Below the pieces are notes generated by a model that saw nothing but the letters and a program-made list of their open reading frames with translations, was not told the origin of the DNA and did not search any database. Below, piece by piece: positions 12,817 to 29,312 of a stretch of DNA of 48,871 nt. The translations under genes were made by a program, and so were the position numbers. This stretch comes from Candidatus Krumholzibacteriia bacterium (GTDB lineage Bacteria > Krumholzibacteriota > Krumholzibacteriia > WVZY01), in contig JAZGDW010000085.1 in assembly GCA_036478295.1 (NCBI GenBank), forward strand, positions 1-48,871, written 5' to 3'. Positions within the stretch are counted from its first letter, which is position 1. Each line of letters begins with the position of its first letter.

Positions 12817-12922
12817 GGCAACCTCCTATCCTCGTATTCCTGTGTTGATGGGGACTTGCTAAGGATGAATCAGTATTTTAAGATCGACTGTTCCTGGCCG
12901 ATTCCCCGGTTTACAGTCCTGA

Positions 12923-14095
12923 TTATCGTCTCCGGCGTAATTTACGAATCTCGATATCACCGTTGGTCGTTTTCAGTGTAATGTTGCTGCCGCCGCCGTT
13001 GAGCACGTACTCGGCGAGGACACCCTTGCGATTGCGCTCGTGCCTGGCAGCCTTGAAGTCCGAATAGACGTCGAACTCACCTTCTTCGTCGTCATCCCAT
13101 CCCCAGCCGCCGTGGATGCGGATCCTGGCCAGGATATTCGCCTTGGCCTTCTCCGGGATGTAGAGCTCGATGTCGCCACCCGCCGTTTCGAAATGGCTGT
13201 CCTTGTTGCCACTCGGAACCAGCTGGACGACGATATCGCCGCCCGCGGTCTCGGCTTCTATGGAGCCGGTGATGTCCTCGAGCACAATGTCGCCACCGGC
13301 GGTGCGGGCCGTTACCCGTCCCGAAGCACTGAGCAGCTCGATATCGCCGCCCGCGGTCCTGACGTCTGCCGTGCCGGACACCTTTCCCAACCGCACATCG
13401 CCGCCCGCCGTCGACACGTCCGCGAAACCGCCAACGTCGCCGACCTCGATATCTCCGCCGGCCGTCTTGGCGTCGAGGTCGTTCTCGACTGCTCCGACCG
13501 TGATATCGCCGCCAGAGGTGTGTGCTTTCAGCTTGCCCTTGACGTCACCCACCTCGATGTCGCCGCCAGAAGTATTGAACTCCGCGTTGCCCAGCACGTC
13601 GCGCGCGCGGATGTCGCCGCCGGAGGTCCGCAGGCGGACTTCTCCGTCAACCTGGTCTATCTCGATGTCACCACCGGCCGTCGCCGCGGTGACGGTCCCG
13701 CTGAGCCGATCGTTCACTTCGATGTCTCCACCCGACGTCTGCAAATCGAGACTGAACTCGTTGGGCACATCCACGCTGATCAGTATATGACCGGACCGGT
13801 GCCATCCACCGCGTCCGTGGTACTCCACGTGCACGGTATTGCCGCTAGCGCTCATCTCCAGGTCTTCGAGATCTTCCTCAGGAATGCCGTCGACCTTGAC
13901 CTTGACTTCGCTGCTGTTCCACACACGGATCTCGATGTCCGCACCGACGTTTTTTGCGCTTACGACGAGCTCTCCGCCCTTCTTCACCCTGAAAGTCTCC
14001 GTCTTGCTGGTCCTGCGCCCGGCGATCGCCGCCGCCGCCGAAAGGGTCAGGAAAGCCACCAGTGCCGCGACGATTTGCCATTTGAATCTATTCAT
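12923..14095 (-). CDS. DUF4097 family beta-strand repeat (adhesin-like) protein
   Basis: About ten T(S/A)GGDI repeats at roughly 18-aa period; signal peptide; AGGAGG SD before ATG 14095. Confidence 0.9.
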   Translation of the reverse strand: MNRFKWQIVAALVAFLTLSAAAAIAGRRTSKTETFRVKKGGELVVSAKNVGADIEIRVWNSSEVKVKVDGIPEEDLEDLEMSASGNTVHVEYHGRGGWHRSGHILISVDVPNEFSLDLQTSGGDIEVNDRLSGTVTAATAGGDIEIDQVDGEVRLRTSGGDIRARDVLGNAEFNTSGGDIEVGDVKGKLKAHTSGGDITVGAVENDLDAKTAGGDIEVGDVGGFADVSTAGGDVRLGKVSGTADVRTAGGDIELLSASGRVTARTAGGDIVLEDITGSIEAETAGGDIVVQLVPSGNKDSHFETAGGDIELYIPEKAKANILARIRIHGGWGWDDDEEGEFDVYSDFKAARHERNRKGVLAEYVLNGGGSNITLKTTNGDIEIRKLRRRR

Positions 14096-15116
14096 TACCG
14101 TTATCCTCCTGGATGAAAGCGGTCGTCTTCGCACGGAGAAGGTCATCGTCTCCGAGTTGTGTTCTCAGCGTATTGTAAATCTCTCCACCAGCGAGGTCAC
14201 CCTCCTGGGTGGCTCGCGCCAGCAAATTGATCGCGGCGACCCTCATACCGGGGTTGCGATCGTTGGTCAACACGTACAAACACGCGTTCTTGATATCGTC
14301 ATCAAAGGTAAGCTGTTGCAGCACGCGGAACGACTCCCTGCGAACGCCCGCATTGGGATCCGTCGTCAACGCTTCGATGAGTGCTCTCTTCACATCGCCG
14401 TCGCCGGTCCGGGAGGCAGCTGTGGCGAACGCGTTGACCGCCTGCAACCGCACGCCCGTGTTCTCTTCATTGAGTAGCGCGTAGGCCAGCATGCGCTGCA
14501 TGCGAGCGTCGTCGAGGCCCGCACGAAGCCGGACCGGACGAACCAGATCGTAGTGAATCTCGATCTCGCCACTGGGCGCACTGGTCCCCACAAACCGCAC
14601 GTTGGCGATGTCCGGACGCCCCAGCGCCTCGTAATTATTCGCCCCAGGCGGGGCGCTCGTTGTGGCCTGCTCGACGGTGCCCCCTCCAAAGGACACATAA
14701 CCGATGAACACGCCAATCGCGATGGCGGTGGCCCCTGAAAACGCGAGCCGGTATCCCCGCATCCAATCCATCCAGCCGCGGACCAGTCCGCCCGGGGAGA
14801 GGGAGGATCCTCTTTCTGCCAACGGGCCTGAAACCATCGGTGCCACGTCCTGCGTCGTACGTGGTAATGCCGGCTGCGCTGGAGATTCTTGACGGATTGT
14901 GTCAGAGAGCCTCCGACGAGTTTGCCACAACATTTGCTCCGAAGGTTCCGCGGTTCCGCCCTCCCCGAGAACGGTCATCAACTGCCGCAGCTCGTGAAAC
15001 TCAGCCCGGCATGTATCGCATTCCGTAAGATGATCCCGCAGGGTTGACATTTCACCTGCGCTGATCTCGTCCGAAATCGCCAGCTGAAGCAATTCTCTGT
15101 ATCTTTCGTGGTCCAT
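14088..15116 (-). CDS. Anti-sigma factor with zf-HC2 (ZAS) domain, TM helix and periplasmic HEAT repeats
   Basis: HLTECDTC (HxxxCxxC); one TM segment; HEAT-like 'D.N.GVR..A' repeats; directly downstream of the ECF sigma gene. Confidence 0.85.
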   Translation of the reverse strand: MDHERYRELLQLAISDEISAGEMSTLRDHLTECDTCRAEFHELRQLMTVLGEGGTAEPSEQMLWQTRRRLSDTIRQESPAQPALPRTTQDVAPMVSGPLAERGSSLSPGGLVRGWMDWMRGYRLAFSGATAIAIGVFIGYVSFGGGTVEQATTSAPPGANNYEALGRPDIANVRFVGTSAPSGEIEIHYDLVRPVRLRAGLDDARMQRMLAYALLNEENTGVRLQAVNAFATAASRTGDGDVKRALIEALTTDPNAGVRRESFRVLQQLTFDDDIKNACLYVLTNDRNPGMRVAAINLLARATQEGDLAGGEIYNTLRTQLGDDDLLRAKTTAFIQEDNGNE

Positions 15117-15131
15117 CGTTACCCCTCTTGT

Positions 15132-15728
15132 TCAGAAGACCTTTTTGAGCTTGCTGCGCATCCTGTCATTGGCGGTAAACAGATATTTCTTAACGGTTCC
15201 CTCACTGCACTCCATCATGGAGGCGATCTCTCTCAGTTTGTATCCCTGATAGTGTTTGAGCGTAAACACGAGCCGCTGCTGCGGCGACAACGATTCCAGC
15301 GCAGCTTGTATATATCGAGCGATTTCCACATTCTGCGCGTGGCGCTCCGGTGACACGGGTTGCGACCCTCTCATCGGTGACGCCTCCAAGGCGTGGCCTT
15401 GCATCTCCAACTCCTCGTCCAACGACACGAAGGTCCGGTTCTTGTGCCGTGTCTGATGCGTAATGCAGACGTTTGTGACAATTCGATAGAGCCATGTCGA
15501 AAACTCGCTCCTGAACTGAAATCCTGATAGCGAACGGTAAACTCTTAAAAAAACCTCTTGGTAAATGTCTTGGGCGTCTTCGGTGTTATTTGTGTAAGAC
15601 GAGGCGATCGATAGTACCTGCCGGTCATAGCGATAAACCAAATCGTCGAACGCTGAGGTTTCCCCCCGCTGTACTCTGGAGATCAATTCCTGGTCAGTTG
15701 GGTTCACAGAATCAATTTCCAAGGTCAT
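15132..15728 (-). CDS. ECF-type RNA polymerase sigma factor
   Basis: Region 2 'DAQDIYQEVFL...FSTWLYRIVTN'; region 4 'LREIASMMECSEGTVK'. Confidence 0.95.
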   Translation of the reverse strand: MTLEIDSVNPTDQELISRVQRGETSAFDDLVYRYDRQVLSIASSYTNNTEDAQDIYQEVFLRVYRSLSGFQFRSEFSTWLYRIVTNVCITHQTRHKNRTFVSLDEELEMQGHALEASPMRGSQPVSPERHAQNVEIARYIQAALESLSPQQRLVFTLKHYQGYKLREIASMMECSEGTVKKYLFTANDRMRSKLKKVF

Positions 15729-15925: not shown

Positions 15926-17680
15926 ATGGCCGTGCCTCGTACATATGGCGGTAAGAGCACCGTTCTCACCGGTATTCTGGGCGCCCTGGGCCTCCTGTCG
16001 CTGCTGGTGGGGTCCGGCAACGGGCGGACGGCGTCGAGCGCCGCCCTGGAGACTTCCAACTACCGTATTTACACCGCCGACCCATCCCCCAACCCCGAAT
16101 GGCTAGGGCGAGTGTCGGAGCGCCGCGAGGAGGCCCACCGCCGGATCCAGGCGTTTCTCGAGGCGCCGGGGCCCTCACCCAAGATCGACTATCACATCTA
16201 CCCCAGCTTCGAGTCCAAGGGGCTCAGCACAGGCAACACGCAACTCGCCCACGCGGACATCGAGAACAACGCCATCCACCTGGTGATCAACGACTGGATT
16301 CGGGGGGACGACACCAGGATGGACGCGGTCCTGCTCCTGCGACGACATCTCGGCAGACCCGCCACGCATCTGCTCGAAACGGGGCTTGCGGTCTATTTTT
16401 CCAACGAATGGCGGGGCAAGGGGTACCGGTACTGGGCGGGCCGCCTCCACGCATCGGACAACATGCCCGCGCTCGCCGAACTGGTCGACAACGAAGCCCT
16501 TCGCCGCGAATCGTACCTGGTGGCGGAAGCAGCGGCGGGCTCTTTTGTGGATTTTCTCATCGAAGAATTCGGCGGCAGCGTATTGGTCGAACACTACGGT
16601 GCCTGGCGGCCGGCGCCCGACGAGATCCAACGCCTGCAAAACGGCTGGTGGTCCCACCTCGCCAGGCAACCCGCCGCCGCGGCAAAGCAACTCGCCGCGC
16701 GCACGCGCCCGCCTTCGGACAGGTTTCAGAAGGGATTCTGCCATGCGCACGAGGGCTACCAGATATTCAACGGGTACCTGTCCCGGAAATCGGATGATGC
16801 GCTGGAAAAGCTCGCCGACATGGGAACCAACGCGGTTTCGATAACGCCTTTCACCTACATGCGAGACCCGCAGCGGCCGGTGCCGCTGCGGTTCTCGCAC
16901 CGTGCCGGATCCGAAAACGATGAGTCCGTCATCCATTCGTCACACACCGCCCATCAGCTCGGCATGTCAGTGATGTTAAAACCGCACATCTGGCTGGGTG
17001 GCGGAAGGTGGCCCGGCGATGTCGAGATGCGAACCGCCACCGACTGGCGCCTGTTCTTCGATTACTACTACCGGTGGATGCGCCACTACGCGCTCCTCGC
17101 CGAAATGTACGACATCGACCTGCTGTGCATCGGCGTCGAGCTGGCGCGCACGACTGCCTCCCACGAGAACGAGTGGCGCCGGCTCATCCAACGGCTCCGC
17201 GGCCTGTACAGCGGTGCGATGGTCTACGCGGCAAACTGGGGTGAGGAATTCCAGAACATCGCCTTCTGGGACGCGCTCGATTACATCGGCATCGATTGCT
17301 ACTATCCGCTGACCAGCCATGACGACGCCACCGCCGAAGACCTGCGCCAGGGGGCCGAAGCGATGTTCGAGAGAGTGGAGCGGGTGTACGATCGTTTTCA
17401 CAAGCCGGTTCTGTTCACGGAAATAGGCTTTACCAGCACACGCGCTCCGTGGAAGAAACCGCACGAGCCGGCCTGGCGTCACTCGGCTTTTGTGGATCAC
17501 CAGGCGATGTGCTACGAAGCGGTCCTTGGTGCGCTTTACGGAAAACAGTGGTGCAACGGAATCTACTGGTGGAAGTGGCCGAGCTTCCTCGAACACGGGG
17601 GACAGAAAAACCCCGGTTTTACGCCCAACAATAAGCCCGCTGAGAAAATCGTTCGTAAATGGTACGGCAAATCCTGGTAG
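15926..17680 (+). CDS. Secreted glycoside hydrolase family 113-like TIM-barrel protein with N-terminal degenerate peptidase-MA-like domain
   Basis: 'VMLKPHIW', 'CIGVEL' (acid/base Glu), 'YAANW', 'GIDCYYPL', 'FTEIGF' (nucleophile Glu), 'GIYWWKW', 'NNKPAE'. Confidence 0.8.
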   Translation: MAVPRTYGGKSTVLTGILGALGLLSLLVGSGNGRTASSAALETSNYRIYTADPSPNPEWLGRVSERREEAHRRIQAFLEAPGPSPKIDYHIYPSFESKGLSTGNTQLAHADIENNAIHLVINDWIRGDDTRMDAVLLLRRHLGRPATHLLETGLAVYFSNEWRGKGYRYWAGRLHASDNMPALAELVDNEALRRESYLVAEAAAGSFVDFLIEEFGGSVLVEHYGAWRPAPDEIQRLQNGWWSHLARQPAAAAKQLAARTRPPSDRFQKGFCHAHEGYQIFNGYLSRKSDDALEKLADMGTNAVSITPFTYMRDPQRPVPLRFSHRAGSENDESVIHSSHTAHQLGMSVMLKPHIWLGGGRWPGDVEMRTATDWRLFFDYYYRWMRHYALLAEMYDIDLLCIGVELARTTASHENEWRRLIQRLRGLYSGAMVYAANWGEEFQNIAFWDALDYIGIDCYYPLTSHDDATAEDLRQGAEAMFERVERVYDRFHKPVLFTEIGFTSTRAPWKKPHEPAWRHSAFVDHQAMCYEAVLGALYGKQWCNGIYWWKWPSFLEHGGQKNPGFTPNNKPAEKIVRKWYGKSW

Positions 17681-17748
17681 ACTTGTGCTAACATCGGCTT
17701 AGCGGTTTGTTAGTTTTTTTGAACTCCCCCGTCTAATCCGGACAGAGA

Positions 17749-19134
17749 ATGACCACGTTTTTCCTGCACTTTTGCAGCCGATTTCTAGTCGCCTGCCTCT
17801 GCCTCGGCATCCTGTTGAGTTTGCCGATGGTGACCCGCGCGGATGATACCCGTCCTGCGGCCTCTGGAGAGCGGCAGGCAGGCGCCAAGCAAGAACCGGC
17901 TGCAGCGGTACCAGCAGACGACCCCGGGGAAGGAGCGGGCGGGGCGGCTGAGCAACCCGGCGAGGCCCCCGACTCCTCGCAGGCGTTTCCCAAGAAAATG
18001 CCGCCGACCAGTGCCTGGGAAAAAATAGCGTCTTTCCCCGGATGGATAGCGTACGCCCCGCTGTGGCTGACGTTCGAAACCGTTGTCGGTGTCATCATTT
18101 TGAACGACCGTGTCCAGCTGATTCCGAAGACGATTGATTTTCTCACGACCGAGGACGGCCGGCGGGGAGTACTCCCCACGGTTGCGCCCCGTTCTGGCAT
18201 CGGCGTCCGATATTTTGCGAACGATATTCTGAATCCCGGTTCGCGCTTCCGGGGGACGTTTGCCGCGGGGTTGCGCGGCCGCAAGCTTCTTGAAATGCAT
18301 TACTACGGGATCGACGTGTTCGACGCTGCATTGGTCGTCAGTGGCAGGGCCCAGTACCGCAACCTGACGGACGAGCGTTTTTATGGCATCGGCCCTGGCA
18401 CCGAAGAGGATGACGAGACGTCGTTCGGGCACAAGAGAGCGCTGGCTGAGCTTACCGTAGGCAGGCAATTGCGAGAGAGGTTGCGAACGGAAGTGGCCCT
18501 TGGATACGAGCACAATATCATCCGCCAGGGCCGGGGTGACAGCATTTCGATCACCGACGTGCTGACCGAGAACGAGCTGCCGGGACTCGAGGAGGAGAGC
18601 TCAATGGCAAGAATCGAACTCTCCTTCCAGTACGACGGTAAGAACAGGGACTTTCGCCCCTCGGCCGGTGTGGAGGCCGAGTTGCGCGGACGCGTTACGA
18701 CGGAACTCAAGGACGATGATTTCGGGTTCAGCACGATTGGCGGCGATATAAGGAAGTACGTGCACATTCGTAATGACCGTATCCTTGTCTTTCGCCTGGC
18801 CGCGACTTTTGTAGATCCGCTGTCGGATCGACGCGTGCCTTTCTATTCGCTAAGCGAGCTCGGAAGAACCAATACTATCCGCGGGTTCAGACGGGGACGC
18901 TTCCGGGACCGGGACATGATACTTGGTTCTATCGAGTACCGGTATCCGGTCTGGCGGGCGATGGATGCTCTGTTCTTTGTCGACGCGGGCCAGGTGAGCA
19001 ACAATATCGACGCGAACGACCTTCAGTTAACGTTTGGCGGGGGTTTTCGCGTCTGGGAAAAGAAAGGTGCTTTCTTGCGGCTGGAAATTGGCGTCAGCGA
19101 TGACGGGGTTCGTTTTCATTTTTTCTTGAACTGA
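17749..19134 (+). CDS. BamA/TamA (Omp85) family outer-membrane beta-barrel without POTRA domains
   Basis: Signal peptide; Omp85 loop-6 'LG..NTIRGF..GRFRD', 'SIEYRY', 'FVDAGQV', 'FGGGFR' motifs; aromatic C-terminus; only a short low-complexity N-terminal region. Confidence 0.85.
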   Translation: MTTFFLHFCSRFLVACLCLGILLSLPMVTRADDTRPAASGERQAGAKQEPAAAVPADDPGEGAGGAAEQPGEAPDSSQAFPKKMPPTSAWEKIASFPGWIAYAPLWLTFETVVGVIILNDRVQLIPKTIDFLTTEDGRRGVLPTVAPRSGIGVRYFANDILNPGSRFRGTFAAGLRGRKLLEMHYYGIDVFDAALVVSGRAQYRNLTDERFYGIGPGTEEDDETSFGHKRALAELTVGRQLRERLRTEVALGYEHNIIRQGRGDSISITDVLTENELPGLEEESSMARIELSFQYDGKNRDFRPSAGVEAELRGRVTTELKDDDFGFSTIGGDIRKYVHIRNDRILVFRLAATFVDPLSDRRVPFYSLSELGRTNTIRGFRRGRFRDRDMILGSIEYRYPVWRAMDALFFVDAGQVSNNIDANDLQLTFGGGFRVWEKKGAFLRLEIGVSDDGVRFHFFLN

Positions 19135-19200
19135 TTTTCTGAAGCGGTGCGCGACGATAACGACATGACTATTTCAGGCAATAGCTTATTTCGAACCACG

Positions 19201-20850
19201 ATGATCCGTACCGTATGGCTACTGGTGCTCCTCTGCGCACTCGGGTGCGGCGGCGCGGGTCAGCTCAGGGTCCCCGATCCTGTCCCGGATGACCGCCGTG
19301 ACATCCCGACTCCCAAGAAGAACAAGATCTACGTCATCGCCAACGCGTTCGAGCAGCAAGTGTCCAAACAGGCCAAGCGCAGCTTCGACCTGTCGCGCGT
19401 CATCCGCAAGGTCAGCGGCAGCCCCAAAGAGGCGTTTAACATCGATGCTTTCGACGGGGTCCGGGATTCGAGCTGGTTCACCAACCGTAACGGCCGCACC
19501 CCGCTCACGCTCGAGGAAATCCGACGCGGGCCCGACGCCGGGCATGGACCGGACACGTCGGGCACCTGGACGGTGGTGGCGGCAAAGAGCGAAGGTGTCA
19601 CGCCTGGCTTTACGATCGAAGACAGTCGCGGTGACCGATATTTCCTCAAGTTCGACCCACCGGGTTACAACGAGCTGATGACCGCAGCGGAAGTCATCGC
19701 GACAAAGCTGATCTACGCGTCGGGCTACCACACGCCGGAAAACTATGTGACGTACTTTCACCCCGACCGTCTCGAGCTGGGCGACAACGTCACATTACGT
19801 GAGGAGGGCAAGAAACGGCCCATGACTCCTCAGGACATCGACCGCATTATGCGTGGGGTCGAACGGCGCCCCGACGGCACCATTCGCGCAGTGGCAAGCA
19901 GGTTTCTCCAGGGCAAGGTGCTGGGGCCGTTCCGGTACGAGGGTACCCGCAAGGACGATCCAAACGACTTCATCCCACATGAACACCGGCGGGAACTTCG
20001 CGGTTTGAGAATGATCGCCGCCTGGCTCAATCATTACGACACAAAAGCGAACAACACCCTGGATGTCCACGTCGAAGGGGGCGGCCGCCGTTACGTAAGA
20101 CATTATCTGATCGATTTTGGCTCGACGCTGGGAAGCCGCGGCAACGAGCCCATGTCGACCTGGACTGGCCACGAGAATTTCTTCGATGGTGGGTCGATTC
20201 TCGCGAATACCTGGAAGCTCGGGCTTCACGTTCCCGAGTGGGAGAAGAAAAACACCACTATCAGGTATCCTTCGGTCGGCCTGTTCCGTTACGAACCTTT
20301 CGACCCTATGAAATACAAGTTTTCCATTCCAAATCCCGCGTTCGCCAATTTGACCAATCGTGATGGCTACTGGGCGGTGAAAATCGTGACCTCGTTCACC
20401 GATGAACAGATCGAGGCGGCCGTGGAGACAGGAAGCTACTCCAATCCCGAGGCAGCCGCCTACGTTGCGCGCGTCCTCGTGGAACGCCGGAATATTATGG
20501 GGCGCTTCTGGTTCAACAGGGTGAACTGCCTGGACGAGTTCGCGGTGGCCGGGGACCCGGACGGCGGGCAGCTGAGCTTCGTCGATCTGGCGGTGGAAAC
20601 CGGGATCGAATCCGCCGACGGGAGACGCTACCAGTACCAGATACTGCGGGATGGCAAGGCCATTGGCGAAGCCGTGGAGATGTCCCGCGCGGACCCGATT
20701 GGCCTGCCAGCCGGGGAGGCCGGCATGGTCGAAGTCCGCGTGCGCAACCGGCGCGGCGATGGTAACTGGGCCGGGTGGGTCTCCGTATACGTGGAGTCTT
20801 CGCCCGATTCCGGCGAGTACACCCTCGTGGCTGTTGCGCGTCCAGACTAA
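19201..20850 (+). CDS. Lipoprotein with atypical (HipA/PI3K/CotH-like) kinase fold
   Basis: Lipobox ALG-C; 'KSEGVTPG' loop, 'YFLKFD' Lys, 'TAAEVIA' Glu, 'WLNHYDTKANNT' catalytic loop, 'YLIDFG'. Start could instead be 19147 or 19165. Confidence 0.65.
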   Translation: MIRTVWLLVLLCALGCGGAGQLRVPDPVPDDRRDIPTPKKNKIYVIANAFEQQVSKQAKRSFDLSRVIRKVSGSPKEAFNIDAFDGVRDSSWFTNRNGRTPLTLEEIRRGPDAGHGPDTSGTWTVVAAKSEGVTPGFTIEDSRGDRYFLKFDPPGYNELMTAAEVIATKLIYASGYHTPENYVTYFHPDRLELGDNVTLREEGKKRPMTPQDIDRIMRGVERRPDGTIRAVASRFLQGKVLGPFRYEGTRKDDPNDFIPHEHRRELRGLRMIAAWLNHYDTKANNTLDVHVEGGGRRYVRHYLIDFGSTLGSRGNEPMSTWTGHENFFDGGSILANTWKLGLHVPEWEKKNTTIRYPSVGLFRYEPFDPMKYKFSIPNPAFANLTNRDGYWAVKIVTSFTDEQIEAAVETGSYSNPEAAAYVARVLVERRNIMGRFWFNRVNCLDEFAVAGDPDGGQLSFVDLAVETGIESADGRRYQYQILRDGKAIGEAVEMSRADPIGLPAGEAGMVEVRVRNRRGDGNWAGWVSVYVESSPDSGEYTLVAVARPD

Positions 20851-20862
20851 GGCGTCTCCATT

Positions 20863-22113
20863 ATGACAAGATACGTGCGGAGCGCAGGCCCTCTCCTGCT
20901 GCTTCTAATTGTTCCACTCCTGATCACCAGTCTCGGCTGCTCGGGCCGGGGATTCGTGCGGGACGCGTACTCGCCGGATTTCTACAAGATTCCCCGCTTG
21001 CTGCCGGACAATACGCTCGATAAGAACCCCCGCTTTATTGTCTATGGCGACAACCGCCCAGGGTGGCGGGGCAAACAGGTCATGGCAAAGAAGCATACCT
21101 ACCTCACCTGGAAACAGCTCTACCTGCCGGGCGTGTACCAGTTGTACCTCCTGGGCAGTGGGTTCTCAGCGGGCGTCAACTACCTGCGCAAGGCACCGGA
21201 CTGGGGAGAACGTCAGGCACGGAGGGTCCGCGACGACATCTACGCACAGGCCAGGCGTTCGAACATAGACTTCATTATTCACGCCGGTGATATGGTGACG
21301 GACGGCCGGCGCCCGAAACACTGGCGGACGTTTCTCAGGCAGTACAAGGAGGAAGTCCCGCTGGCGTTGGAGTTTCCGATTCTACCGACCATCGGAAATC
21401 ACGAGATGGCGAACGACAGCGTCTACGGTATGCCCAACTACAGAGACGTTTTTTCGTACCCGCAGTTCTATGTTTTCCGGTGTCCGGACGTGGACTTTTT
21501 CGTGCTGGATTCTGATATCCTGCTCGATCAGAACCAGCTGATCGACGATGACACCCAGGATGAGCTCTTCGCCCAATGGATCTTCGCCGGGGAGGGCGCG
21601 GAGGAAACCGCCTGGCTGCAGCGGCAGCTTGCGGCCAGCGATAAGACGTTCAAGGTCGTGGTGATGCACCACCCACCCTTGGTATTCGCGAGGCACTTCG
21701 ACGACTGGCTCAATCCGGAATTCGGCAGGAACCTCAAGCAAAAACGCCAGGCATTGCTGCGCGTGCTTCGGCACCACGGGGTTCAGATCGTGTTCTCCGG
21801 GCACCAGCACATGTACGAGCACAGCATTCTTTCCTACGAGGGCGTAACGGGCAGCGAAGGCAAGTTGCACGAAATCATTACCGGAGGCGGCGGTTCACCG
21901 CTTCACAGCCCGTACGAAGGGCAGAGGCTAGAGGCGTGCGCGGCGGCCTACCGGCAGGAGGGCCTCGATGTGCTCTGCATCAAGCAGGAATCGATTTACA
22001 ACTACTGCCTCGTGGACGTCACTTCCGATACGATCACCGTCACGGTCTTCGAGGTGACGGAGACTCCCGAAACCACCGGGAGGGTCGTCGACACCATTAT
22101 CATCGGCAAGTGA
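20863..22113 (+). CDS. Lipoprotein calcineurin-like metallophosphoesterase (purple acid phosphatase-like)
   Basis: Lipobox SLG-C; GDNR, AGDMV, GNHE, MHHP and SGHQH metal-binding motifs. Confidence 0.88.
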   Translation: MTRYVRSAGPLLLLLIVPLLITSLGCSGRGFVRDAYSPDFYKIPRLLPDNTLDKNPRFIVYGDNRPGWRGKQVMAKKHTYLTWKQLYLPGVYQLYLLGSGFSAGVNYLRKAPDWGERQARRVRDDIYAQARRSNIDFIIHAGDMVTDGRRPKHWRTFLRQYKEEVPLALEFPILPTIGNHEMANDSVYGMPNYRDVFSYPQFYVFRCPDVDFFVLDSDILLDQNQLIDDDTQDELFAQWIFAGEGAEETAWLQRQLAASDKTFKVVVMHHPPLVFARHFDDWLNPEFGRNLKQKRQALLRVLRHHGVQIVFSGHQHMYEHSILSYEGVTGSEGKLHEIITGGGGSPLHSPYEGQRLEACAAAYRQEGLDVLCIKQESIYNYCLVDVTSDTITVTVFEVTETPETTGRVVDTIIIGK

Positions 22114-22126
22114 CAGGCGACACGCC

Positions 22127-24883
22127 ATGGTAAAGCGTATATTCGGCGCGGTCCTGGATGTCAGAAGAGGTGAAATCGCTCTCACCCTTTTGATGCTTCT
22201 TTACTACTACCTCTTGCTGGTCACCTATTACTTTCTCAAACCGGCCCGCGACGGTCTTTTTCTGGTAAAGCTCGGGCCCGATCAACTTCCCGTTGTTTAC
22301 ATCCTGATCGCCATCGCCGTAGTGCCGATTACGACGATCTACTCGCGCGCGAGCCGTTCGCTGAAGCTGAACCAGCTGATAAACGTCACGACGGTAATTT
22401 TCATCGCAAGCCTGTTCATACTTCGCTGGCTTCTCGGGTTCGGGCAGCCCTGGGTGTTTTACCTCTTTTATGTCTGGGTGAGTATTTATGGAGTAATGGC
22501 CACCGCCCAATTCTGGCTTCTGAGCAACGGTGTATTCGACGCGACCCAGGCGAAACGGCTTTTCGTGCTCTTCGGCCTGGGCGGCATTATCGGAGCTTTT
22601 ACCGGGGGTGAGCTGACCGGCTTTGTCGTTCATACGCTGAGCGTATCGACCAAGGATCTCCTCTTCCTTTGTGCGGCGATCCTGGTCGTTTGCACCCTTC
22701 TCGTGAACGCCATCTGGACGATCAAGCAACGAGGTGAAGCCCCTATCGCCCACGGCTCGCGCGAAAAAACACGTGCCGCGGTCAGCTATGGTGAAATCTT
22801 TCGTGATCTCACCCGTTCCCGTCACCTGATGCTTATTGTCGGCATTATCGGTATGACCATGGCCACGGCCTCCTTCGTGGATGTCCAGTTCAAGACCATC
22901 GCCGCCGGGGCCTTCGAGGCGGAAGAAGATCTCACGTCTTTCATCGCCAAATTCTACGGGCGTGTGAGCCTGCTCGCTTTCTTGTTTCAGCTCCTGATAA
23001 GCTACCGCTTTTTGAAACGGTTTGGTGTGGCCGGGGCGATATTGCTGCTGCCCGCGGCATTGTTCGCCGGGACAATTGTCATGATAGCTGTGCCGGGTCT
23101 CTTGGCGGGTATGCTGCTCCGGGGTGCCGATTGGACGTTCAAGTACTCGATCGACAAGACCGGCCGGGAGCTTCTCTTTCTGCCGGTGCCGCTGGAAATC
23201 AAGAAGCGCACGAAGGTATTTATCGATATGTTCGTCGATCGCGGATTCCGCGGCATATCCGGTCTCTTGCTCTTGCTTTTTGTCACCGTGCTTCATTTTT
23301 CCGTCCGCCAGTTGAGTATCGTTGTCACCGTGTTCCTGGGCGTGTGGTTGACCTTGGTGCTCCTGATGCGCAAGGAATATGTCAACGCTTTCCGCAGGGC
23401 ACTGGAACGTCGTGAGGTCGACCTCGGTGACCTCAGTATGAGCATCGTAGACCCATCCACGCTGGACAGTCTGAAGACCGCGCTGCAAAGTACGAACGAG
23501 CGCCAGGTGGTTTATGCGGTACAGATGCTGACGGGCGTTCAGGACGATGAGATCAAGGAAGCGCTGCGCCCGCTCCTGGGCCACGAATCCGACGACGTGC
23601 GCTTTGCGGTCCTCAAGGCATTGCAGGAGTCCGGACAGGATGGAGAGTTCGCGCAGGAAGTAGGTTCGCTGCTCGAAGATTCCAACCCGTTCGTGAGGCG
23701 TGAGGCGATACACTACCTTTGCGAGAATGCGGCCGAGGGAGACACACGAGCATTACAGGACTATCTGCAAGATTCGGACATCCAGATCCGTTCCGCTGCT
23801 ATTGGCTGCATCGCCGAGCACGGCGACGCCGCCCAGAAAGACCTCATCAGCGAGAGCCTGATCCGGGAGATAATGGCCAGCGAGGGGCCGGAAAGCGAGT
23901 TTGCCCGCACGCAACTGGCAGAAGCGTTCGGCTCCCTGAACAAACCTGGCTATCGTGGTGTCTTGTCGGAACTGCTAAGCGATCCTTCCCCCTCGGTTGT
24001 CGAAGAGGCAATGCGCAGCGCCGGCCGGACCGGCGACCGGGAACTCGTACCGGAACTGCTCGAGCGCCTCGCCGACAAGCGCTACCGCAAGGCGGCGAGA
24101 GAGGGCCTGGTCAACTACGGAGATCGCATTGTCGGCACGCTGAGTGATTACATCGTCGATTCCTCCCTTGGCTTCACCGTGCGCAGCAATCTGTGCCGTG
24201 TACTGAGCCGGATTCCCTCCCAGCACTCGGTCGATTCGCTTGCCGCCATCCTGGATAAAGCGGAGCCGGCGCTGAAGTATTTCATTATTAGAGCGTTGAA
24301 CTCGCTGCGCGCCAGGTATCCCGATTTCAAGTTTGCGCACTCGGCACTGAACGACGCCTTGCTCGAAGAGAGTGAATCATACTATGCGATACTCCAGATA
24401 CTCCGCGTGATTGGTGATTCCAGCGATCCGGGCTGCAAGTTGCTCGACCGGGCGCTACGCGAAAAGATCGATCAGAACCTCGAACGGATGTTTCGTATTC
24501 TCGGACTTCGCTACTCGCAGAAGGACATTTACGGTGCGTACCTGGGTATCATCGGCGGCCAGAAGCAGTTGAAGGCCAGTGCGATCGAATTTCTGGACAA
24601 CGTCCTCAAGAAGGAAGTAAAAAGATATCTTTTCCCGATCTTTGACACCGTTACGATCGACGTGAAAATCAGAAAAGGCCAGGAGCTCTTTGGCGTGAAT
24701 TTGAGTGATCACGAGGCGTCAATGAAGTATATTCTCGATGGTAGCGATCCCTGGCTCAGAGCGTGTGCGATCTTCAGCCTCAAGGATCATCTCTCTCCCA
24801 ACACGAAGGAGATGGTGAAGCGCTGCCGGGACGATGCGAACCCGGTGGTACGGGAGATCGCGTGCTTGGTGCTGGGCGACTAA
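22127..24883 (+). CDS. Npt1/Npt2 (NTT/TLC) nucleotide transporter fused to HEAT repeats
   Basis: About 12-TM N-terminal half with 'LKPARDGLFL', 'QFW...FD..QAKRLF', 'KYSIDK..RELLFLP', 'K.FID.FVDR'; C-terminal HEAT repeats (D..VR..A). Confidence 0.88.
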   Translation: MVKRIFGAVLDVRRGEIALTLLMLLYYYLLLVTYYFLKPARDGLFLVKLGPDQLPVVYILIAIAVVPITTIYSRASRSLKLNQLINVTTVIFIASLFILRWLLGFGQPWVFYLFYVWVSIYGVMATAQFWLLSNGVFDATQAKRLFVLFGLGGIIGAFTGGELTGFVVHTLSVSTKDLLFLCAAILVVCTLLVNAIWTIKQRGEAPIAHGSREKTRAAVSYGEIFRDLTRSRHLMLIVGIIGMTMATASFVDVQFKTIAAGAFEAEEDLTSFIAKFYGRVSLLAFLFQLLISYRFLKRFGVAGAILLLPAALFAGTIVMIAVPGLLAGMLLRGADWTFKYSIDKTGRELLFLPVPLEIKKRTKVFIDMFVDRGFRGISGLLLLLFVTVLHFSVRQLSIVVTVFLGVWLTLVLLMRKEYVNAFRRALERREVDLGDLSMSIVDPSTLDSLKTALQSTNERQVVYAVQMLTGVQDDEIKEALRPLLGHESDDVRFAVLKALQESGQDGEFAQEVGSLLEDSNPFVRREAIHYLCENAAEGDTRALQDYLQDSDIQIRSAAIGCIAEHGDAAQKDLISESLIREIMASEGPESEFARTQLAEAFGSLNKPGYRGVLSELLSDPSPSVVEEAMRSAGRTGDRELVPELLERLADKRYRKAAREGLVNYGDRIVGTLSDYIVDSSLGFTVRSNLCRVLSRIPSQHSVDSLAAILDKAEPALKYFIIRALNSLRARYPDFKFAHSALNDALLEESESYYAILQILRVIGDSSDPGCKLLDRALREKIDQNLERMFRILGLRYSQKDIYGAYLGIIGGQKQLKASAIEFLDNVLKKEVKRYLFPIFDTVTIDVKIRKGQELFGVNLSDHEASMKYILDGSDPWLRACAIFSLKDHLSPNTKEMVKRCRDDANPVVREIACLVLGD

Positions 24884-24952
24884 TGATCGGTAGCTGCGGG
24901 ACTCGAGACCTTTCCCGCAAATCGAGGCCAGCGGGCAAGGGAGCATGGAGCA

Positions 24953-25402
24953 ATGCTTACAGTCGTCGAAAAAGTAATCCTTCTGCAGAACGTGGAAGTC
25001 TTCGAGGGAATTCCAACGGAGCAGCTCTCATACCTCGCCGCAATCGCCGAAGAGGCCTCTTTTTCCAAGGGCCAGGAGTTCTACCGCTTCGGCGAAGTCT
25101 CTGACGCTCTTTATATAGTCCTCGAGGGTGAAGTGGGACTGCACCGGGACAACGAACAGATCACGGTCGCGCGCATCAACGACACGTTCGGAGCCTGGGC
25201 CCTGTTTGACGACAAGCCCAGGGTCGCGACGGCCACCGCCGCCGAGGACGGCCGGTTGCTCCGCATCTACAGGGAGGATTTCCTCGACCTGCTGTCCGAC
25301 AACAGCCAGATTACCGAGGCGGTGCTCAAAATGATCGTGGGGCGCCTGCGGGGCCTGCTCGAGCGCGTAGAGGCGAATCTCGGCCAGAAGCGTGACAACT
25401 AA
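24953..25402 (+). CDS. Stand-alone cyclic nucleotide-binding domain protein
   Basis: 'EKVILLQNVEVF', 'LYIVLEGEV', phosphate-binding cassette 'FGAWAL...PRVATA'; no HTH domain. Confidence 0.88.
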   Translation: MLTVVEKVILLQNVEVFEGIPTEQLSYLAAIAEEASFSKGQEFYRFGEVSDALYIVLEGEVGLHRDNEQITVARINDTFGAWALFDDKPRVATATAAEDGRLLRIYREDFLDLLSDNSQITEAVLKMIVGRLRGLLERVEANLGQKRDN

Positions 25403-26984
25403 GAAAGTTTCCATGAGCGCCTCCGACAAACAAGAGATAAGACAACTTCGCGAATCCGAGGAGAAATACCGCAAGATGATCGAGCGGGCGAGCGACGGGA
25501 TTTTCGCCCTGGATACGGAGACGGGCTGCATTATCGAGGCCAACCCGCGGGCCGAGGCAATGACCGGCTACAGCAAGAAAGAGCTGCTCGGAATGCACGT
25601 GTCTGACCTGCATGCGCCCGGAGAAAGGGAGGAGGTAGAAACCCTTTTCCGAAAGGTGAACGCAGCGGGCAGCGGATTTTCGAACCACCTGTGCTTTCTG
25701 ACCAAGTCGGGCAAGGAAGTCGCGGTGGACATCAGCGCCTCGGTCATTACTTTCGGTGACAAGAAGATTATCCAGAGGATTTGCCGTGACGTCACCCAGC
25801 GCCGAGCATTGGAGAGACAAATCGCCGCGCAACGAGATTACTACGAGTTCATCCTGGATATGCTTCCGGTGGGTCTGGGCGTCAAGAAGGACGTCAACCG
25901 CGCACCCACTATAGAATTCGAGAACCGGCGTCTGCGGGAAATGTTTCCTGCCAACAAGGACGATCCGAAGCGACGAAGCTGGCACGACCTGCCGGGCGGA
26001 GACCTGCCGCGCAAGACGATTATTGACGACACCGGGGTGTACGCCGAAGAGCGCACCTATCCCGACGGCAAGGTATATCAGTTCACGCTGAACTATTACA
26101 GGAACCGCGAGAACTCATGGTCGGAGCTGCAGCTGGTACGTGACGTCACGCGGCGTCGTGAACTCGAGGACCAGCTGAAGTTGGCCATGGAAGACCTGGA
26201 GCAAAAGGTGCAGGAGAGAACGCTGGAGCTGCGCCAGAAGCAGGCCCAACTGGTACAGGCAGAGAAGATGGCCTCGCTGGGCAATCTCGTGGCCGGCATC
26301 GCCCACGAGATAAACACGCCCCTGGGAGCCTTGAAGAGCAACAACGACCTCCTGGTCCGCTCCCTGCGGAAGATCCGCACGGTTCTGGACCGGGACCTGT
26401 CCGCGGAGGCACGACAGCATCCGGAATTCTTGAAATCGATGGTGGCGATCGAGGACCTGAACCGTGTCAACCAGACCGCCATGCAGCGTATCGTGGCGAT
26501 CGTGCGCAGCCTCCGCAACTTCGCGCGGCTCGACGCCGCCGAGCAGGACCAGGTCGACATCCACGAGGGACTGGACAGCACCTTGACCCTGGTTCATCAT
26601 CAGATGAAGAACAGGATCCGCGTGCACAAGGATTACGGCAAGCTGCCTACGATCTACTGCTACCCCAACCAGCTGAATCAGGTCTTTATGAACGTTCTTG
26701 TAAATTCCAGCCAGGCCATCGAAGACAAGGGCGATATTTACATCAAGACTTTTCGGGACGATGACAAGGCTGTCATCGAAATACGCGACACGGGCAGGGG
26801 TATCCCGCCCGAGCACCTCAAGCAGATCTTCGACCCCGGTTTCACCACGAAGGGTGCGGGTGTCGGCACCGGACTGGGACTTTCGATCGTTTACCAGATT
26901 ATCGAGGATCACCATGGGGAAATAAAAATCGAGAGTGAAGAAGACAAGGGAACCACGGTTCGCATTGCATTCCCGATCGGCTGA
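25392..26984 (+). CDS. Cytoplasmic PAS-domain sensor histidine kinase (NtrB-like)
   Basis: PAS/PAC domains; H-box 'AGIAHEINTP'; N box 'NQVFMNVLVN'; G1 'DTGRGI'; 'FDPGFTTK'; 'GTGLGL'. No TM segment. Start overlaps the cNMP gene (alternative ATG 25413). Confidence 0.93.
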   Translation: MTTKKVSMSASDKQEIRQLRESEEKYRKMIERASDGIFALDTETGCIIEANPRAEAMTGYSKKELLGMHVSDLHAPGEREEVETLFRKVNAAGSGFSNHLCFLTKSGKEVAVDISASVITFGDKKIIQRICRDVTQRRALERQIAAQRDYYEFILDMLPVGLGVKKDVNRAPTIEFENRRLREMFPANKDDPKRRSWHDLPGGDLPRKTIIDDTGVYAEERTYPDGKVYQFTLNYYRNRENSWSELQLVRDVTRRRELEDQLKLAMEDLEQKVQERTLELRQKQAQLVQAEKMASLGNLVAGIAHEINTPLGALKSNNDLLVRSLRKIRTVLDRDLSAEARQHPEFLKSMVAIEDLNRVNQTAMQRIVAIVRSLRNFARLDAAEQDQVDIHEGLDSTLTLVHHQMKNRIRVHKDYGKLPTIYCYPNQLNQVFMNVLVNSSQAIEDKGDIYIKTFRDDDKAVIEIRDTGRGIPPEHLKQIFDPGFTTKGAGVGTGLGLSIVYQIIEDHHGEIKIESEEDKGTTVRIAFPIG

Positions 26985-26998
26985 CCAAGGAGAGTGGT

Positions 26999-27478
26999 AT
27001 GGCGGAGACTGTTGAAACGACTGTTGTGCTCGTGGACGATGAGGAAATGGTTTTGACCAGTTTGCGTTCGTTCCTGACCTTGGAAACGGATTATACCGTC
27101 GAAACCTTTACCAACCCCGTGACGGCTCTACTTTTTGTGCGAGAGAATGACGTCGATCTCGTGCTTTCCGATTATCTGATGCCGGAGATGGACGGGATAA
27201 CTTTTCTTGGTGAAGTACGAAAAATCAAGCCCGACGTGCCCCGCATCATCCTCACCGGCTACGCGGACAAGGAGAATGCCATCAAGGCCATAAACGAGAT
27301 CGGCCTTTTTCAGTACATCGAGAAACCCTGGGACAACAGCGACCTGCTTCTCGTGTTACGCAACGGCATCGAGCGCAAGCGGCTCATGAACAAACTCGAG
27401 GAAAAGATATCACAAGTCGCCGACGCCGAGGGCGATCTGCAATCATTGTACAACCAGATACTCAAGACCTTCGTTTAA
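26999..27478 (+). CDS. Single-domain response regulator with short C-terminal coiled coil
   Basis: VDDE, SDYLMP (phospho-Asp), LTGY, KPW; AGGAG SD. Confidence 0.92.
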   Translation: MAETVETTVVLVDDEEMVLTSLRSFLTLETDYTVETFTNPVTALLFVRENDVDLVLSDYLMPEMDGITFLGEVRKIKPDVPRIILTGYADKENAIKAINEIGLFQYIEKPWDNSDLLLVLRNGIERKRLMNKLEEKISQVADAEGDLQSLYNQILKTFV

Positions 27479-27544: not shown

Positions 27545-28522
27545 CTAGCGGTTCGCGATACCCAGCCCGTCCGGCGTATTCCCCGCCTCGATCTTGCGAA
27601 CAACCTTGTAGGTTTCCAGGTTCACTACTGAGATGGTATTGGCGCGTGTGTTGGCCACGAACGCGCGTTTGCCGCCGGCCTCGAGAAGTATGCCGATCGG
27701 CGCGAGTCCCGCCTCGATTCTTCTTACCTCTTTGCGACTCTTGATATCGAAGACCGCCACCTCATTCGCCCTCGCGCAGGAGACAAAGGCCTGCCTGCCG
27801 TCGCGCGTGATTTTGACACGAATGGGAAAACCACGGCAGGGCACGGTGGCGACCACGTCGTCGGTTTTGGTATCGATCACCGATACGGTTCCCGCCGCAC
27901 GGTTGCTCGCCCAGACCTGCCGTCCGTCCGGTGTAATATCTATGCCCTCGCAGCCGTCTCCGGTCTCGATTTGCGCGACCACTCTTGCCTCTACCAAATC
28001 TATCGCCGTCACGCTGCCGCTGCCAATGTTCGCCACGTACATCTTTTTGTCGTTCGGAGTCAAAACCAGCATATGTGACACCCGCTGGCCTGTTTCGATA
28101 CTCCGGGTCACCTTTTCGGAGGCGATGTCCATCTCGATTACCACCTGGCTGCCTTCGCATGTCGCGTACAACCGTTTGCCGTCCCGGCTTACCAGGATCC
28201 CGTGGGGGTTGCGATACGGAGCAATCGGTATTTTTCGCAGTTCCTTCATCGCCTTCACGTCGATTAGCGAGATACTGCTCTCGCTCGCCTCGTAGTTGGC
28301 GACAAACGCCCACCTGCCGTCCGGCGTCACCGCGATCTCGTGCGGTCCCCGGCCGGTAGTGGTCGTACCCAACACCACAAAAGTCTCGCTGTCGACGAAT
28401 GAGACGGTGTCGTCGGACTTGTTACAGATGAGAAGTACACTCTTGCCGCCGCCCGCCTCTGCGCGAGCGCTGGTGAACGTTATCATAAGGCCCAGCAAGA
28501 GGAGAAACGTCCTGCTGTACAT
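27545..28522 (-). CDS. Exported YVTN/YncE-type beta-propeller repeat protein
   Basis: Seven repeats of 'G..P.GI..TPDG...(Y/F)V.N...VS.ID'; signal peptide; AGGAG SD. Confidence 0.9.
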   Translation of the reverse strand: MYSRTFLLLLGLMITFTSARAEAGGGKSVLLICNKSDDTVSFVDSETFVVLGTTTTGRGPHEIAVTPDGRWAFVANYEASESSISLIDVKAMKELRKIPIAPYRNPHGILVSRDGKRLYATCEGSQVVIEMDIASEKVTRSIETGQRVSHMLVLTPNDKKMYVANIGSGSVTAIDLVEARVVAQIETGDGCEGIDITPDGRQVWASNRAAGTVSVIDTKTDDVVATVPCRGFPIRVKITRDGRQAFVSCARANEVAVFDIKSRKEVRRIEAGLAPIGILLEAGGKRAFVANTRANTISVVNLETYKVVRKIEAGNTPDGLGIANR

Positions 28523-28802
28523 GTTGACTCCTTTTGTCGTTGGACGCCTGTGTCACGGGGCATCGTAACTTGTTTGACAATAATATCCGCTCCCCGGTGA
28601 ACAAAGTTCTTTTGTATGGTGGGCTTGCGCGGTGCCCACCGGAGAGAGGACCGCCGGCGCAGGTAGGGGTTGAATTCCTCGCTTCAAGCGAGTACATTTG
28701 TTTTTTCTAAGCCGCAACGAGACACATCCTTAGCAGAGCCGGCCGCCCCGGGGCGCGCCGTCTTTAGCAGCGCAAGAAACCGATTCCAGGGGGCGAGATA
28801 TC

Positions 28803-29312
28803 ATGAAGGGAATCGCTATATTCCTGGCAGTGGCGTCGCTTGTCGTGGTCGCAGGTTGCTCGACCATGGCGGTGAACTCGGACTATGACCGTGACGCGGA
28901 TTTTGGGAAGTACCGTTCCTACAAATGGCTGGCCCGGACCGGGAATACCCGTGTCAGCCCACTGACCGACAAGCGGATCAGGACCGCGGTGGACGGTGAG
29001 ATGGCCGCGAAGGGCTACCGCAAGAGCGACGACGGCAAACCGGATCTGTGGATCGCCTACAAGGCGTTCGTCCGGAACAGAGTCGACGTTTCCACGTACA
29101 CTTATGGCTACTGGGGTCCGTACCCCGGCGGTGCGTACGTGGACGTGGACCGGTACAAGGAAGGCACTCTGGTTCTCGACGTGGTGGACCCGGAGAAGAA
29201 CCAGCTGGTGTGGCGTGGTTGGGCGCGTGGCGTCGTGGGCCGGCGTTCGGATCCCGAAGCCAGAATCAAGGAAGCGGTTCACAAGATAATGGAACGGTTC
29301 CCGCCGAAGTGA
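28803..29312 (+). CDS. DUF4136 domain lipoprotein
   Basis: Lipobox VAG-C; 'DYD..ADF..Y.SY', 'Y.EGTLV.D..D....LVWRG' motifs. Confidence 0.88.
   Translation: MKGIAIFLAVASLVVVAGCSTMAVNSDYDRDADFGKYRSYKWLARTGNTRVSPLTDKRIRTAVDGEMAAKGYRKSDDGKPDLWIAYKAFVRNRVDVSTYTYGYWGPYPGGAYVDVDRYKEGTLVLDVVDPEKNQLVWRGWARGVVGRRSDPEARIKEAVHKIMERFPPK

Follow-up and report, generated by a model that had tools for sequence, protein, structure and literature searches.

A predicted exported kinase, its Omp85 barrel and an NTT-HEAT carrier in a Candidatus Krumholzibacteriia bacterium: a candidate system of envelope phosphorylation

The stretch of DNA analyzed here (48,871 nucleotides, hereafter the window) is contig JAZGDW010000085.1 of the Candidatus Krumholzibacteriia bacterium assembly GCA_036478295.1. 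On its + strand it carries five co-directional open reading frames of 461, 567, 416, 918 and 149 amino acids (aa), separated by 12, 12, 13 and 69 bp. An initial annotation, made from the letters of the sequence, had reported these five genes with gaps of about 12-70 bp, and their presence was borne out. The limits that it set to the row were too narrow, since the co-directional row spans 15926-27478 and includes a GH113 gene upstream, 68 bp from the Omp85 gene, as well as a PAS histidine kinase and a receiver downstream. Beyond the Pfam assignments below, an NCBIfam scan of the five frames gave sub-threshold matches only, and a promoter and terminator scan of the row gave results at chance level. 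The members are as follows:

15926 to 17680, + strand: GH113 glycoside hydrolase (Pfam GH113, E 6e-48), accessory
17749 to 19134, + strand: POTRA-less (noNterm) Omp85 barrel with a signal-like N-terminus (Pfam Omp85, E 1e-22; no POTRA match)
19147 to 20850, + strand: kinase A, a lipoprotein-like predicted atypical kinase of an unnamed family (AlphaFold2 model and motifs; no Pfam or NCBIfam family)
20863 to 22113, + strand: lipoprotein-like calcineurin-type metallophosphoesterase (Pfam Metallophos, E 1e-15)
22127 to 24883, + strand: NTT/TLC-HEAT fusion, an inner-membrane carrier (Pfam TLC, E 1e-18; HEAT_2, E 9e-32)
24953 to 25402, + strand: stand-alone cyclic-nucleotide-binding (cNMP) domain (Pfam cNMP_binding, E 9e-17)
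25392 to 26984, + strand: cytoplasmic PAS histidine kinase (Pfam PAS, HisKA and HATPase_c), overlapping the cNMP gene by 11 bp
26999 to 27478, + strand: stand-alone receiver (Pfam Response_reg, E 2e-26)
29388 to 30602, + strand: receiver-SpoIIE (PP2C) phosphatase (Pfam), a probable further member beyond two opposite-strand genes

The nature of kinase A was approached through structure prediction. No family in Pfam or NCBIfam matched it at E<=0.1, the Fam20C and CotH profiles included; a PDB sequence search returned no kinase among its matches, and a search of the ESM Atlas returned unnamed clusters only, with Fam20C and HipA_2 leads below 0.8. The family comprises 2968 representatives at E<=0.001, and conservation, export counts and the AlphaFold2 model were derived from 126 sequences. 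The model scored 94.5 in predicted local distance difference test (pLDDT) and 0.93 in predicted template modelling (pTM). With it, Foldseek placed Golgi casein kinase and CtkA at the top, and the VIA-align list was headed by 13 kinase entries with Z of 10.6-14.0. These include CtkA at 14.0 (root-mean-square deviation (rmsd) 4.0, 223 residues aligned), Fam20C at 13.4 (rmsd 4.0, 255 aligned), Hydra Fam20 at 13.2, PI4K2-alpha at 12.7, CotH at 12.2 (rmsd 4.2, 235 aligned), actin-fragmin kinase at 11.6 and HipA at 11.0. Residues 460-555 form a C-terminal domain with structural matches to Fn3-like domains. The Lys, Glu, DxKxxN and DFG motifs of the initial annotation are found at K168, E182, D298-x-K-x-x-N303 and D323-F-G, and are conserved across the family: K168 in 121 of the 126 sequences, E or D at 182 in 113, D298 in 123, N303 in 120 and D323 in 123, while the middle position of the DxKxxN motif is occupied by Arg in 61 sequences and by Lys in 44. 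Kinase A is thus predicted to adopt the atypical kinase fold of the HipA/CtkA/Fam20/PI4K2/CotH group, and the fold that had been proposed for it gains support from the model. Moreover, the closest solved folds include Fam20C and CotH, which work outside the cytosol, lending support to an extracytosolic kinase. Fam20C, Fam20B and Bacillus CotH share the fold group (Z 13.4, 13.2 and 12.2) at 8-11% identity; they differ from kinase A, which is bacterial, lipoprotein-like, linked to a barrel and provided with the Fn3-like domain.

Kinase A is likely exported and lipoprotein-like, with ATG at 19201 as the likely start in the window. LALGC and SLGC motifs follow hydrophobic runs in the kinase and the phosphoesterase, placing lipobox-like Cys residues at positions 34 and 26, respectively, as judged by eye and by a hydrophobicity heuristic. 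By the same heuristic, an export-like N-terminus was observed in 119/126 kinase A sequences and a lipobox-like Cys in 55/126. Control proteins from the same loci displayed such an N-terminus in 1/17 receivers, 0/17 cNMP proteins and 5/22 Ser/Thr kinases. The extracytoplasmic placement suggested initially is consistent with these counts. Searching for longer forms of kinase A revealed four fusions to an unknown domain of ~600 aa; in P0152-P0155, kinase A is followed by a conserved C-terminal region of ~600 aa without a Pfam match. An apparent kinase-NTT fusion in L065 proved to be two overlapping frames, and one Omp85-kinase A read-through was discounted as it looks frameshifted.

The neighborhood of kinase A was surveyed in the best 80 of 598 confirmed loci, 38 of which have full flanks of at least 8 kb on both sides; these 80 loci and the set of relatives considered below overlap in some genomes. 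With three loci dropped for having less than 600 bp upstream, an Omp85 gene lies directly upstream of kinase A in 71 of 77, and three of the six exceptions are tandem or second kinase A copies with a barrel nearby. The Omp85 lid motif RGF..RFRD is conserved. A Pfam scan of the window Omp85 (461 aa) gave the Omp85 match and no POTRA, which fits the noNterm definition (a barrel without POTRA or another large N-terminal domain) and the POTRA-less barrel described at the outset; for DUF5982, the leptospiral noNterm motif, no Pfam match was listed, and whether the library includes that model is uncertain. Similar barrels are described for the noNterm and 'Metallo' subfamilies of Omp85, with proposed roles in outer membrane protein (OMP) assembly, proteolysis or adhesin export, in the accessible parts of PMC4104836 (Heinz and Lithgow 2014) and PMC11358297 (Bettin 2024). 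The window barrel resembles the noNterm subfamily in lacking POTRA and is additionally paired with a kinase, a word that occurs 0 times in the accessible text of PMC4104836.

The pairing of a kinase with an Omp85 barrel could also be read as the secretion of an effector. The barrel would then export the kinase, in a two-partner or PlpD-like manner, onto neighboring or host cells, where it would use their ATP in the way of CtkA, and the NTT carriers would import energy from the prey or host. The top fold match is indeed CtkA, the effector kinase of H. pylori; a lipobox is missing from 64 of the 119 kinase A proteins with an export-like N-terminus, and barrel-enzyme fusions of the kind described below resemble the patatin-Omp85 proteins in the accessible part of PMC4104836. 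However, the 55/126 sequences with a lipobox, including that of the window, look lipid-anchored, and type V secretion proteins (TpsB or PlpD-like) have POTRA domain(s) and a passenger, whereas the window barrel has no POTRA match. Furthermore, noNterm barrels are described with an extracellular dome cap (PMC11358297, accessible part), cognate phosphatases are fused to the kinases, and HEAT-type NTTs are without the residues of ATP import. CtkA (Z 14.0, the best structural match) and HipA (11.0) also differ in context, since the kinase A row has no antitoxin gene and the protein has an export signal, a dedicated barrel and a phosphatase. Little probability is therefore left to a secreted effector.

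As for the remaining genes of the row, an NTT gene lies in the flanks of 40/80 kinase A loci (24/38 with full flanks). Among the 80, NTT-HEAT was found in 28, single-domain NTT in 25, cNMP in 17, metallophosphoesterase in 16, PAP2 in 20, and either phosphatase in 33. The co-occurrence that the initial annotation proposed to look for is therefore present, together with the genome-level associations given below. All five genes (Omp85, kinase A, metallophosphoesterase, NTT-HEAT and cNMP) occur together in only 5/80 loci, so that the five genes as one fixed unit, as first described, were rejected. The genome of the window (90.9% complete) contains a second copy (G000:C205:2821-8236, L002) with Omp85, a kinase A 51% identical to the first and a single-domain NTT, followed by a 254-aa secreted protein labelled FG-GAP-like by eye, with no metallophosphoesterase or cNMP gene. 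Both NTT genes found in this genome sit in its two kinase A loci. In 10 long NTT-HEAT loci of relatives, a metallophosphoesterase precedes the carrier in 9. Kinase A lies next to the carrier genes in 4 of these loci, and for the other 6 it is found at a different place in the same genome. It is on these last counts that we distinguish two blocks, barrel-kinase and metallophosphoesterase-carrier-signaling, which are kept together in genomes and not always in one row.

The phosphoesterase of the window contains the motifs GDNR, GDMV, GNHE, HHP and GHQH and is likely exported. The proposal that a phosphatase partners the kinase is strengthened both by co-location and by kinase-phosphatase fusions across three kinase families. 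One database protein fuses kinase A to PAP2, and fusions of metallophosphoesterase with kinase B and Omp85, and of metallophosphoesterase with kinase C, are found in the two families treated below.

The NTT profile matches the structures 9J3N (chlamydial Npt1-type; E 8e-44) and 9J3J (AtNTT1; E 9e-38), and the window carrier scores 56 bits against the NCBIfam family AAA, the cut-off of which is 387 bits. Residues of AtNTT1 were mapped by HMMER alignment of the NTT profile to 9J3J and 9J3N, the spacings of 90/140/142 being in agreement. According to the accessible part of PMC3306366, K155 and K527 take part in binding the nucleotide, and E245 in translocation; the accessible part of PMC4256464 also covers residue roles and states that the substrate is not predictable from sequence. 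At K155, E245, E385 and K527 the window carrier has Y58, S119, D252 and R375, respectively, and the equivalents of K155 and E245 are lost. These losses speak against standard ATP/ADP exchange by the HEAT-type carrier, and the canonical exchange assigned to it at first is not supported. Among single-domain NTTs, K/D/D/K at these positions is found in 13/24 and not in 11/24, the latter type including the NTT of the C205 locus, without K155, E245 and K527. A K/D/D/K carrier and an NTT-HEAT occur within one locus in L007, L036, L041, L057, L061 and L079, which fits two carrier roles. We favor plain ATP/ADP exchange for the single-domain NTTs with all four residues and a regulated or sensing arm for the HEAT-type carrier of the window, which may transport ATP via another site, or else ADP, AMP or another nucleotide. 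AtNTT1 and Npt1 share a homologous carrier domain with the window protein; the latter differs in the two lost residues, in its HEAT repeats and in the outward direction proposed here.

These features leave room for scavenging or trapping, in which the phosphoesterase and the barrel-associated kinase would process a periplasmic small molecule, sugar or nucleotide, and the NTT-HEAT, instead of exporting ATP, would take in the phosphorylated product or salvaged nucleotides. PMC5381601 portrays the characterized NTTs of parasites and plastids as importers, and loss of K155 and E245 fits another substrate. The NTT profile also weakly matches the glucose-6-phosphate exchanger SLC37A4 (E 8e-8), a Fam20B-type sugar kinase is among the fold matches (5XOM, Z 13.2), and GH113 is part of the row in this lineage. 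Even so, the kinase would still require a phosphoryl donor outside the cytoplasm. Moreover, it is signaling genes, not catabolic ones, that recur in the 80 kinase A loci, and GH113 adjoins the module in 4/10 of the relatives' NTT-HEAT loci and in 0/80 of the wider kinase A loci. GH113 was accordingly rejected as a core member and is a lineage-restricted accessory of the row; its protein has an uncharacterized N-terminal domain of ~250 aa and a hydrophobic N-terminus. Scavenging is hence considered unlikely.

Carriers of the NTT-HEAT(-cNBD) type, cNBD being a cyclic-nucleotide-binding domain, have been described without an assigned function, and the main text of that description suggests ATP uptake roles (PMC5381601; Major, Embley and Williams 2017). 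The window agrees with this family in architecture, including a cNBD gene directly after NTT-HEAT, the domain being directly downstream or fused. That main text names no kinase, phosphatase or Omp85 neighbors; the window carrier is linked with exported kinases and with genes of two-component signaling. In other loci the cNMP domain is fused to NTT-HEAT, and in the window it is a split partner. Its phosphate-binding cassette is altered (FGAWALFDDKPRVAT). The Glu of the cassette, the position of which we take from the Gly-Glu and Arg motif of CRP and PKA, is replaced by Thr, Val or Ala, with Arg kept, in 16/22 cNMP matches, forming the clade of the window (one duplicate genome). A canonical cAMP site is thus not supported. 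In L162:4367-7519, cNMP and secretin domains stand in one frame after NTT-HEAT, which may be a read-through. A short NTT-HEAT type (730-800 aa) repeatedly adjoins a Ser/Thr kinase that has a membrane region at its N-terminus and that replaces the cNMP-histidine kinase-receiver block (L027, L031, L035, L069, L076, L078, L081, L107-L109, L121).

The cNMP gene is followed by a histidine kinase or receiver gene in 10/10 of the relatives' NTT-HEAT loci. The PAS histidine kinase of the window has no transmembrane segment, its highest 19-residue hydropathy being 0.97. Copies of the receiver at 26999-27478, 50-70% identical, occur in 11/80 kinase A loci from several phyla, and by sequence this receiver belongs to a family specific to these loci. 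The receiver part of the protein at 29388-30602 is 55-57% identical to it. In L015 and L048 a receiver-SpoIIE gene is part of the cluster, and in L119 one is close by; the gene probably belongs to the row. Between these receiver and receiver-SpoIIE genes, at 27545-29312 on the - strand, are genes for a secreted propeller of the YncE-like type and for a lipoprotein of 169 aa, the latter without a Pfam match. On the other side of the row, at 10135-15728 on the - strand, genes for an extracytoplasmic function (ECF) sigma factor, a zinc-finger/HEAT anti-sigma factor, DUF4097 and DUF5916 diverge from its promoter region.

Partnership of a kinase with a barrel is corroborated by a second family, in which both are one chain. 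In genus g13, kinase A was found in 0/17, and the row consists of NTT, a protein of ~850 aa, a membrane Ser/Thr kinase and NTT-HEAT. The 850-aa protein combines a signal peptide with a domain that bears GGQQT, DWDRHxxQW and DRDQAF motifs (kinase B) and with an Omp85 barrel; here, a kinase B-Omp85 fusion replaces kinase A between two NTT genes. The kinase B domain has at least 3488 homologues. Its profile links are weak (CtkA match at E 0.47; Atlas leads under 0.8) and, together with the motifs, suggest a kinase. Kinase B was found in 30/81 sampled Bacteroidota genomes, and 20 loci (L134-L153) were chosen from 38 matches, 14 of them for frames of ~1240 aa. Frames of 1213-1288 aa with kinase B domain and barrel occur in 16/20 of these loci, and Metallophos was present in 10/10 of the frames scanned with Pfam. 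By domain content these frames are the Omp85-'Metallo' architecture, kinase B being its overlooked middle domain, and the metallophosphoesterase-kinase B-Omp85 protein is the fused analogue of three window genes. The Omp85-'Metallo' class is defined by PF00149 and a barrel in one chain; in the window these are separate genes, and the fused form has kinase B. Neighbors in these loci include a PycTM-family gene in 16/20 (7/7 scanned confirmed), a class III cyclase-like gene in 11/20 (4/5 scanned confirmed) and PPK1 in one. NTT is therefore not the sole solution, and the view that every kinase-barrel system needs an NTT was rejected by the Bacteroidota. Here the 'Metallo' genes adjoin HD-PycTM, class III cyclase, GAF and SdiA-regulated propeller genes, and PycTM looks non-defensive. 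In L144, L145 and L147 (e.g. L147:12577-13635), a conserved 350-aa protein without a Pfam match lies two genes from the Flavobacterium-type metallophosphoesterase-kinase-barrel gene.

A third family, kinase C, often accompanies NTT-HEAT in Acidobacteriota loci lacking kinases A and B, either in one chain with an exported phosphoesterase or as its neighbor (L154, L157, L158, L175, L188); L180 and L181 have the phosphoesterase only. Its profile matches Fam20A/C/B at E 3e-9 to 2e-5. In L156:12095-15067, a protein with a signal peptide, PPDK_N and a phosphoenolpyruvate (PEP)-utiliser mobile domain directly follows NTT-HEAT-cNMP and is a candidate exported dikinase. A hydrophobic run of at least 2.4 precedes the domain in 14/15 of the kinase C, phosphoesterase and PPDK_N proteins of these NTT-HEAT loci. 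In L157:11365-16881, five exported, Fam20-like kinase C genes stand in tandem after an exported phosphoesterase, an array that diverges from STAS-NTT-HEAT-SpoIIE-Ser/Thr kinase. An NTT is present in 16/16 kinase C genomes (of 71 Acidobacteriota; five seeded the profile). Over all 71, NTT was found in 20/22 genomes with kinase A, B or C versus 8/49 without, and in 13/15 versus 8/49 when the five seed genomes, the centre genome and the unpublished G174 were removed. Kin are not independent in these counts, and Fisher values therefore overstate the association. Among the relatives the values are 30/32 with kinase A or B versus 1/9 without, a weak G012 fragment being ignored. A hand count of long-frame NTTs started from 26 matches of at least 820 aa, of which two were dropped, one of them on a contig of 4.8 kb. 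In 12 of the remaining 24 loci, a gene for an exported protein resembling a kinase or dikinase lies within 10 kb. Judged by sequence, then, NTTs are linked to three exported kinase-like families.

The neighborhoods also bear on whether the two blocks act together at all. If they were loose modules, the metallophosphoesterase-NTT-HEAT-cNMP-histidine kinase-receiver block would be a nucleotide-sensing unit that does not fuel the kinase, and the barrel-kinase pair would use, for example, polyphosphate or a PycTM conduit. Separation of the blocks in 6/10 relatives, the altered cNMP motif and the Bacteroidota kinase B loci, with PycTM, class III cyclase-like genes, a single PPK1 and no NTT, agree with this. 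Genomes with split blocks nevertheless retain both, NTTs adjoin three kinase families and a PPDK-like enzyme, and the nucleotide-binding residues of kinase A are conserved; independence of the blocks is distinctly unlikely.

Taken together, the row is best read as envelope phosphorylation coupled to nucleotide exchange across the inner membrane, regulated or read by the HEAT/cNMP-histidine kinase-receiver part, to which we assign a probability of roughly 0.55. A dedicated POTRA-less barrel would likely anchor the likely exported kinase-fold lipoprotein on the inner side of the outer membrane, and the lipoprotein would phosphorylate an envelope target, a reaction that the likely exported phosphoesterase would reverse. 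The nucleotide substrate and product would pass the inner membrane through NTT-family carriers, with supply likely coming from the cytoplasm, and the cytoplasmic cNMP-domain/histidine-kinase/receiver module would likely control the carrier or receive its report. Nucleotide supply is argued for most strongly by the fact that the carrier recurs next to three exported kinase families, only weakly related to one another, and next to a dikinase-like enzyme. We infer the physical contact of kinase A and barrel, the direction and substrate of transport, and the regulation, as well as a target that would more likely be a protein than a glycan or lipid and a periplasmic rather than surface location. 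The location is suggested by the lipoboxes, the lack of POTRA and the topology of N-terminal fusions. The capped noNterm barrel (PMC11358297, accessible part) points the same way.

Several observations weigh against this coupling. K155 or an acid at E245 is kept in 0/29 HEAT-type NTTs, and neither NTT of the source genome retains the four-residue AtNTT1 set. NTT is missing from 14/38 and phosphatase from 19/38 full-flank kinase A loci, and in 6/10 relatives the metallophosphoesterase-NTT-HEAT-cNMP-histidine kinase block lies apart from the barrel-kinase pair. Profile comparison finds weak links only between the kinase families A, B and C (hhalign probability 5-13%). In Bacteroidota, NTT occurs in only 2/30 kinase B genomes, on other contigs, and in 0/20 loci; among the 24 long-frame NTT loci, 2 have a phosphatase only and 10 neither. 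According to PMC5381601, cyanobacteria, Chlamydiae and oomycetes are further groups with widespread NTT-HEAT, and they lie outside the groups searched here for these kinases.

NTT-HEAT-cNBD carriers and noNterm and 'Metallo' Omp85 proteins have already been described. For the kinase-barrel-carrier system as a whole, our literature searches, with subscription papers mostly out of reach, found no description. The periplasm is generally held to lack ATP, and ATP-dependent enzymes are unexpected there; in the lumen of the secretory pathway, ATP must be imported. The module, which is widespread, makes controlled ATP export directly testable, and Omp85-'Metallo' proteins are present in culturable Bacteroidota. 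One function is offered for three orphan groups, namely NTT-HEAT-cNBD carriers, noNterm Omp85 barrels and Omp85-'Metallo' proteins. More tentatively, and with the odds somewhat against it, many diderms may possess a hidden periplasmic kinome. It would consist of no fewer than three unnamed families of exported kinases and an exported dikinase-like enzyme, each with an exported phosphatase of its own, fed with ATP that NTT carriers export under the gating of cytoplasmic signaling, or with PycTM as the conduit in Bacteroidota. If true, such a kinome would parallel in bacteria the ATP-fed Fam20 phosphorylation of the endoplasmic reticulum and Golgi lumen, would assign a function to NTT-HEAT in free-living bacteria, and would make Omp85-'Metallo' proteins and part of the noNterm subfamily platforms for kinases and phosphatases.

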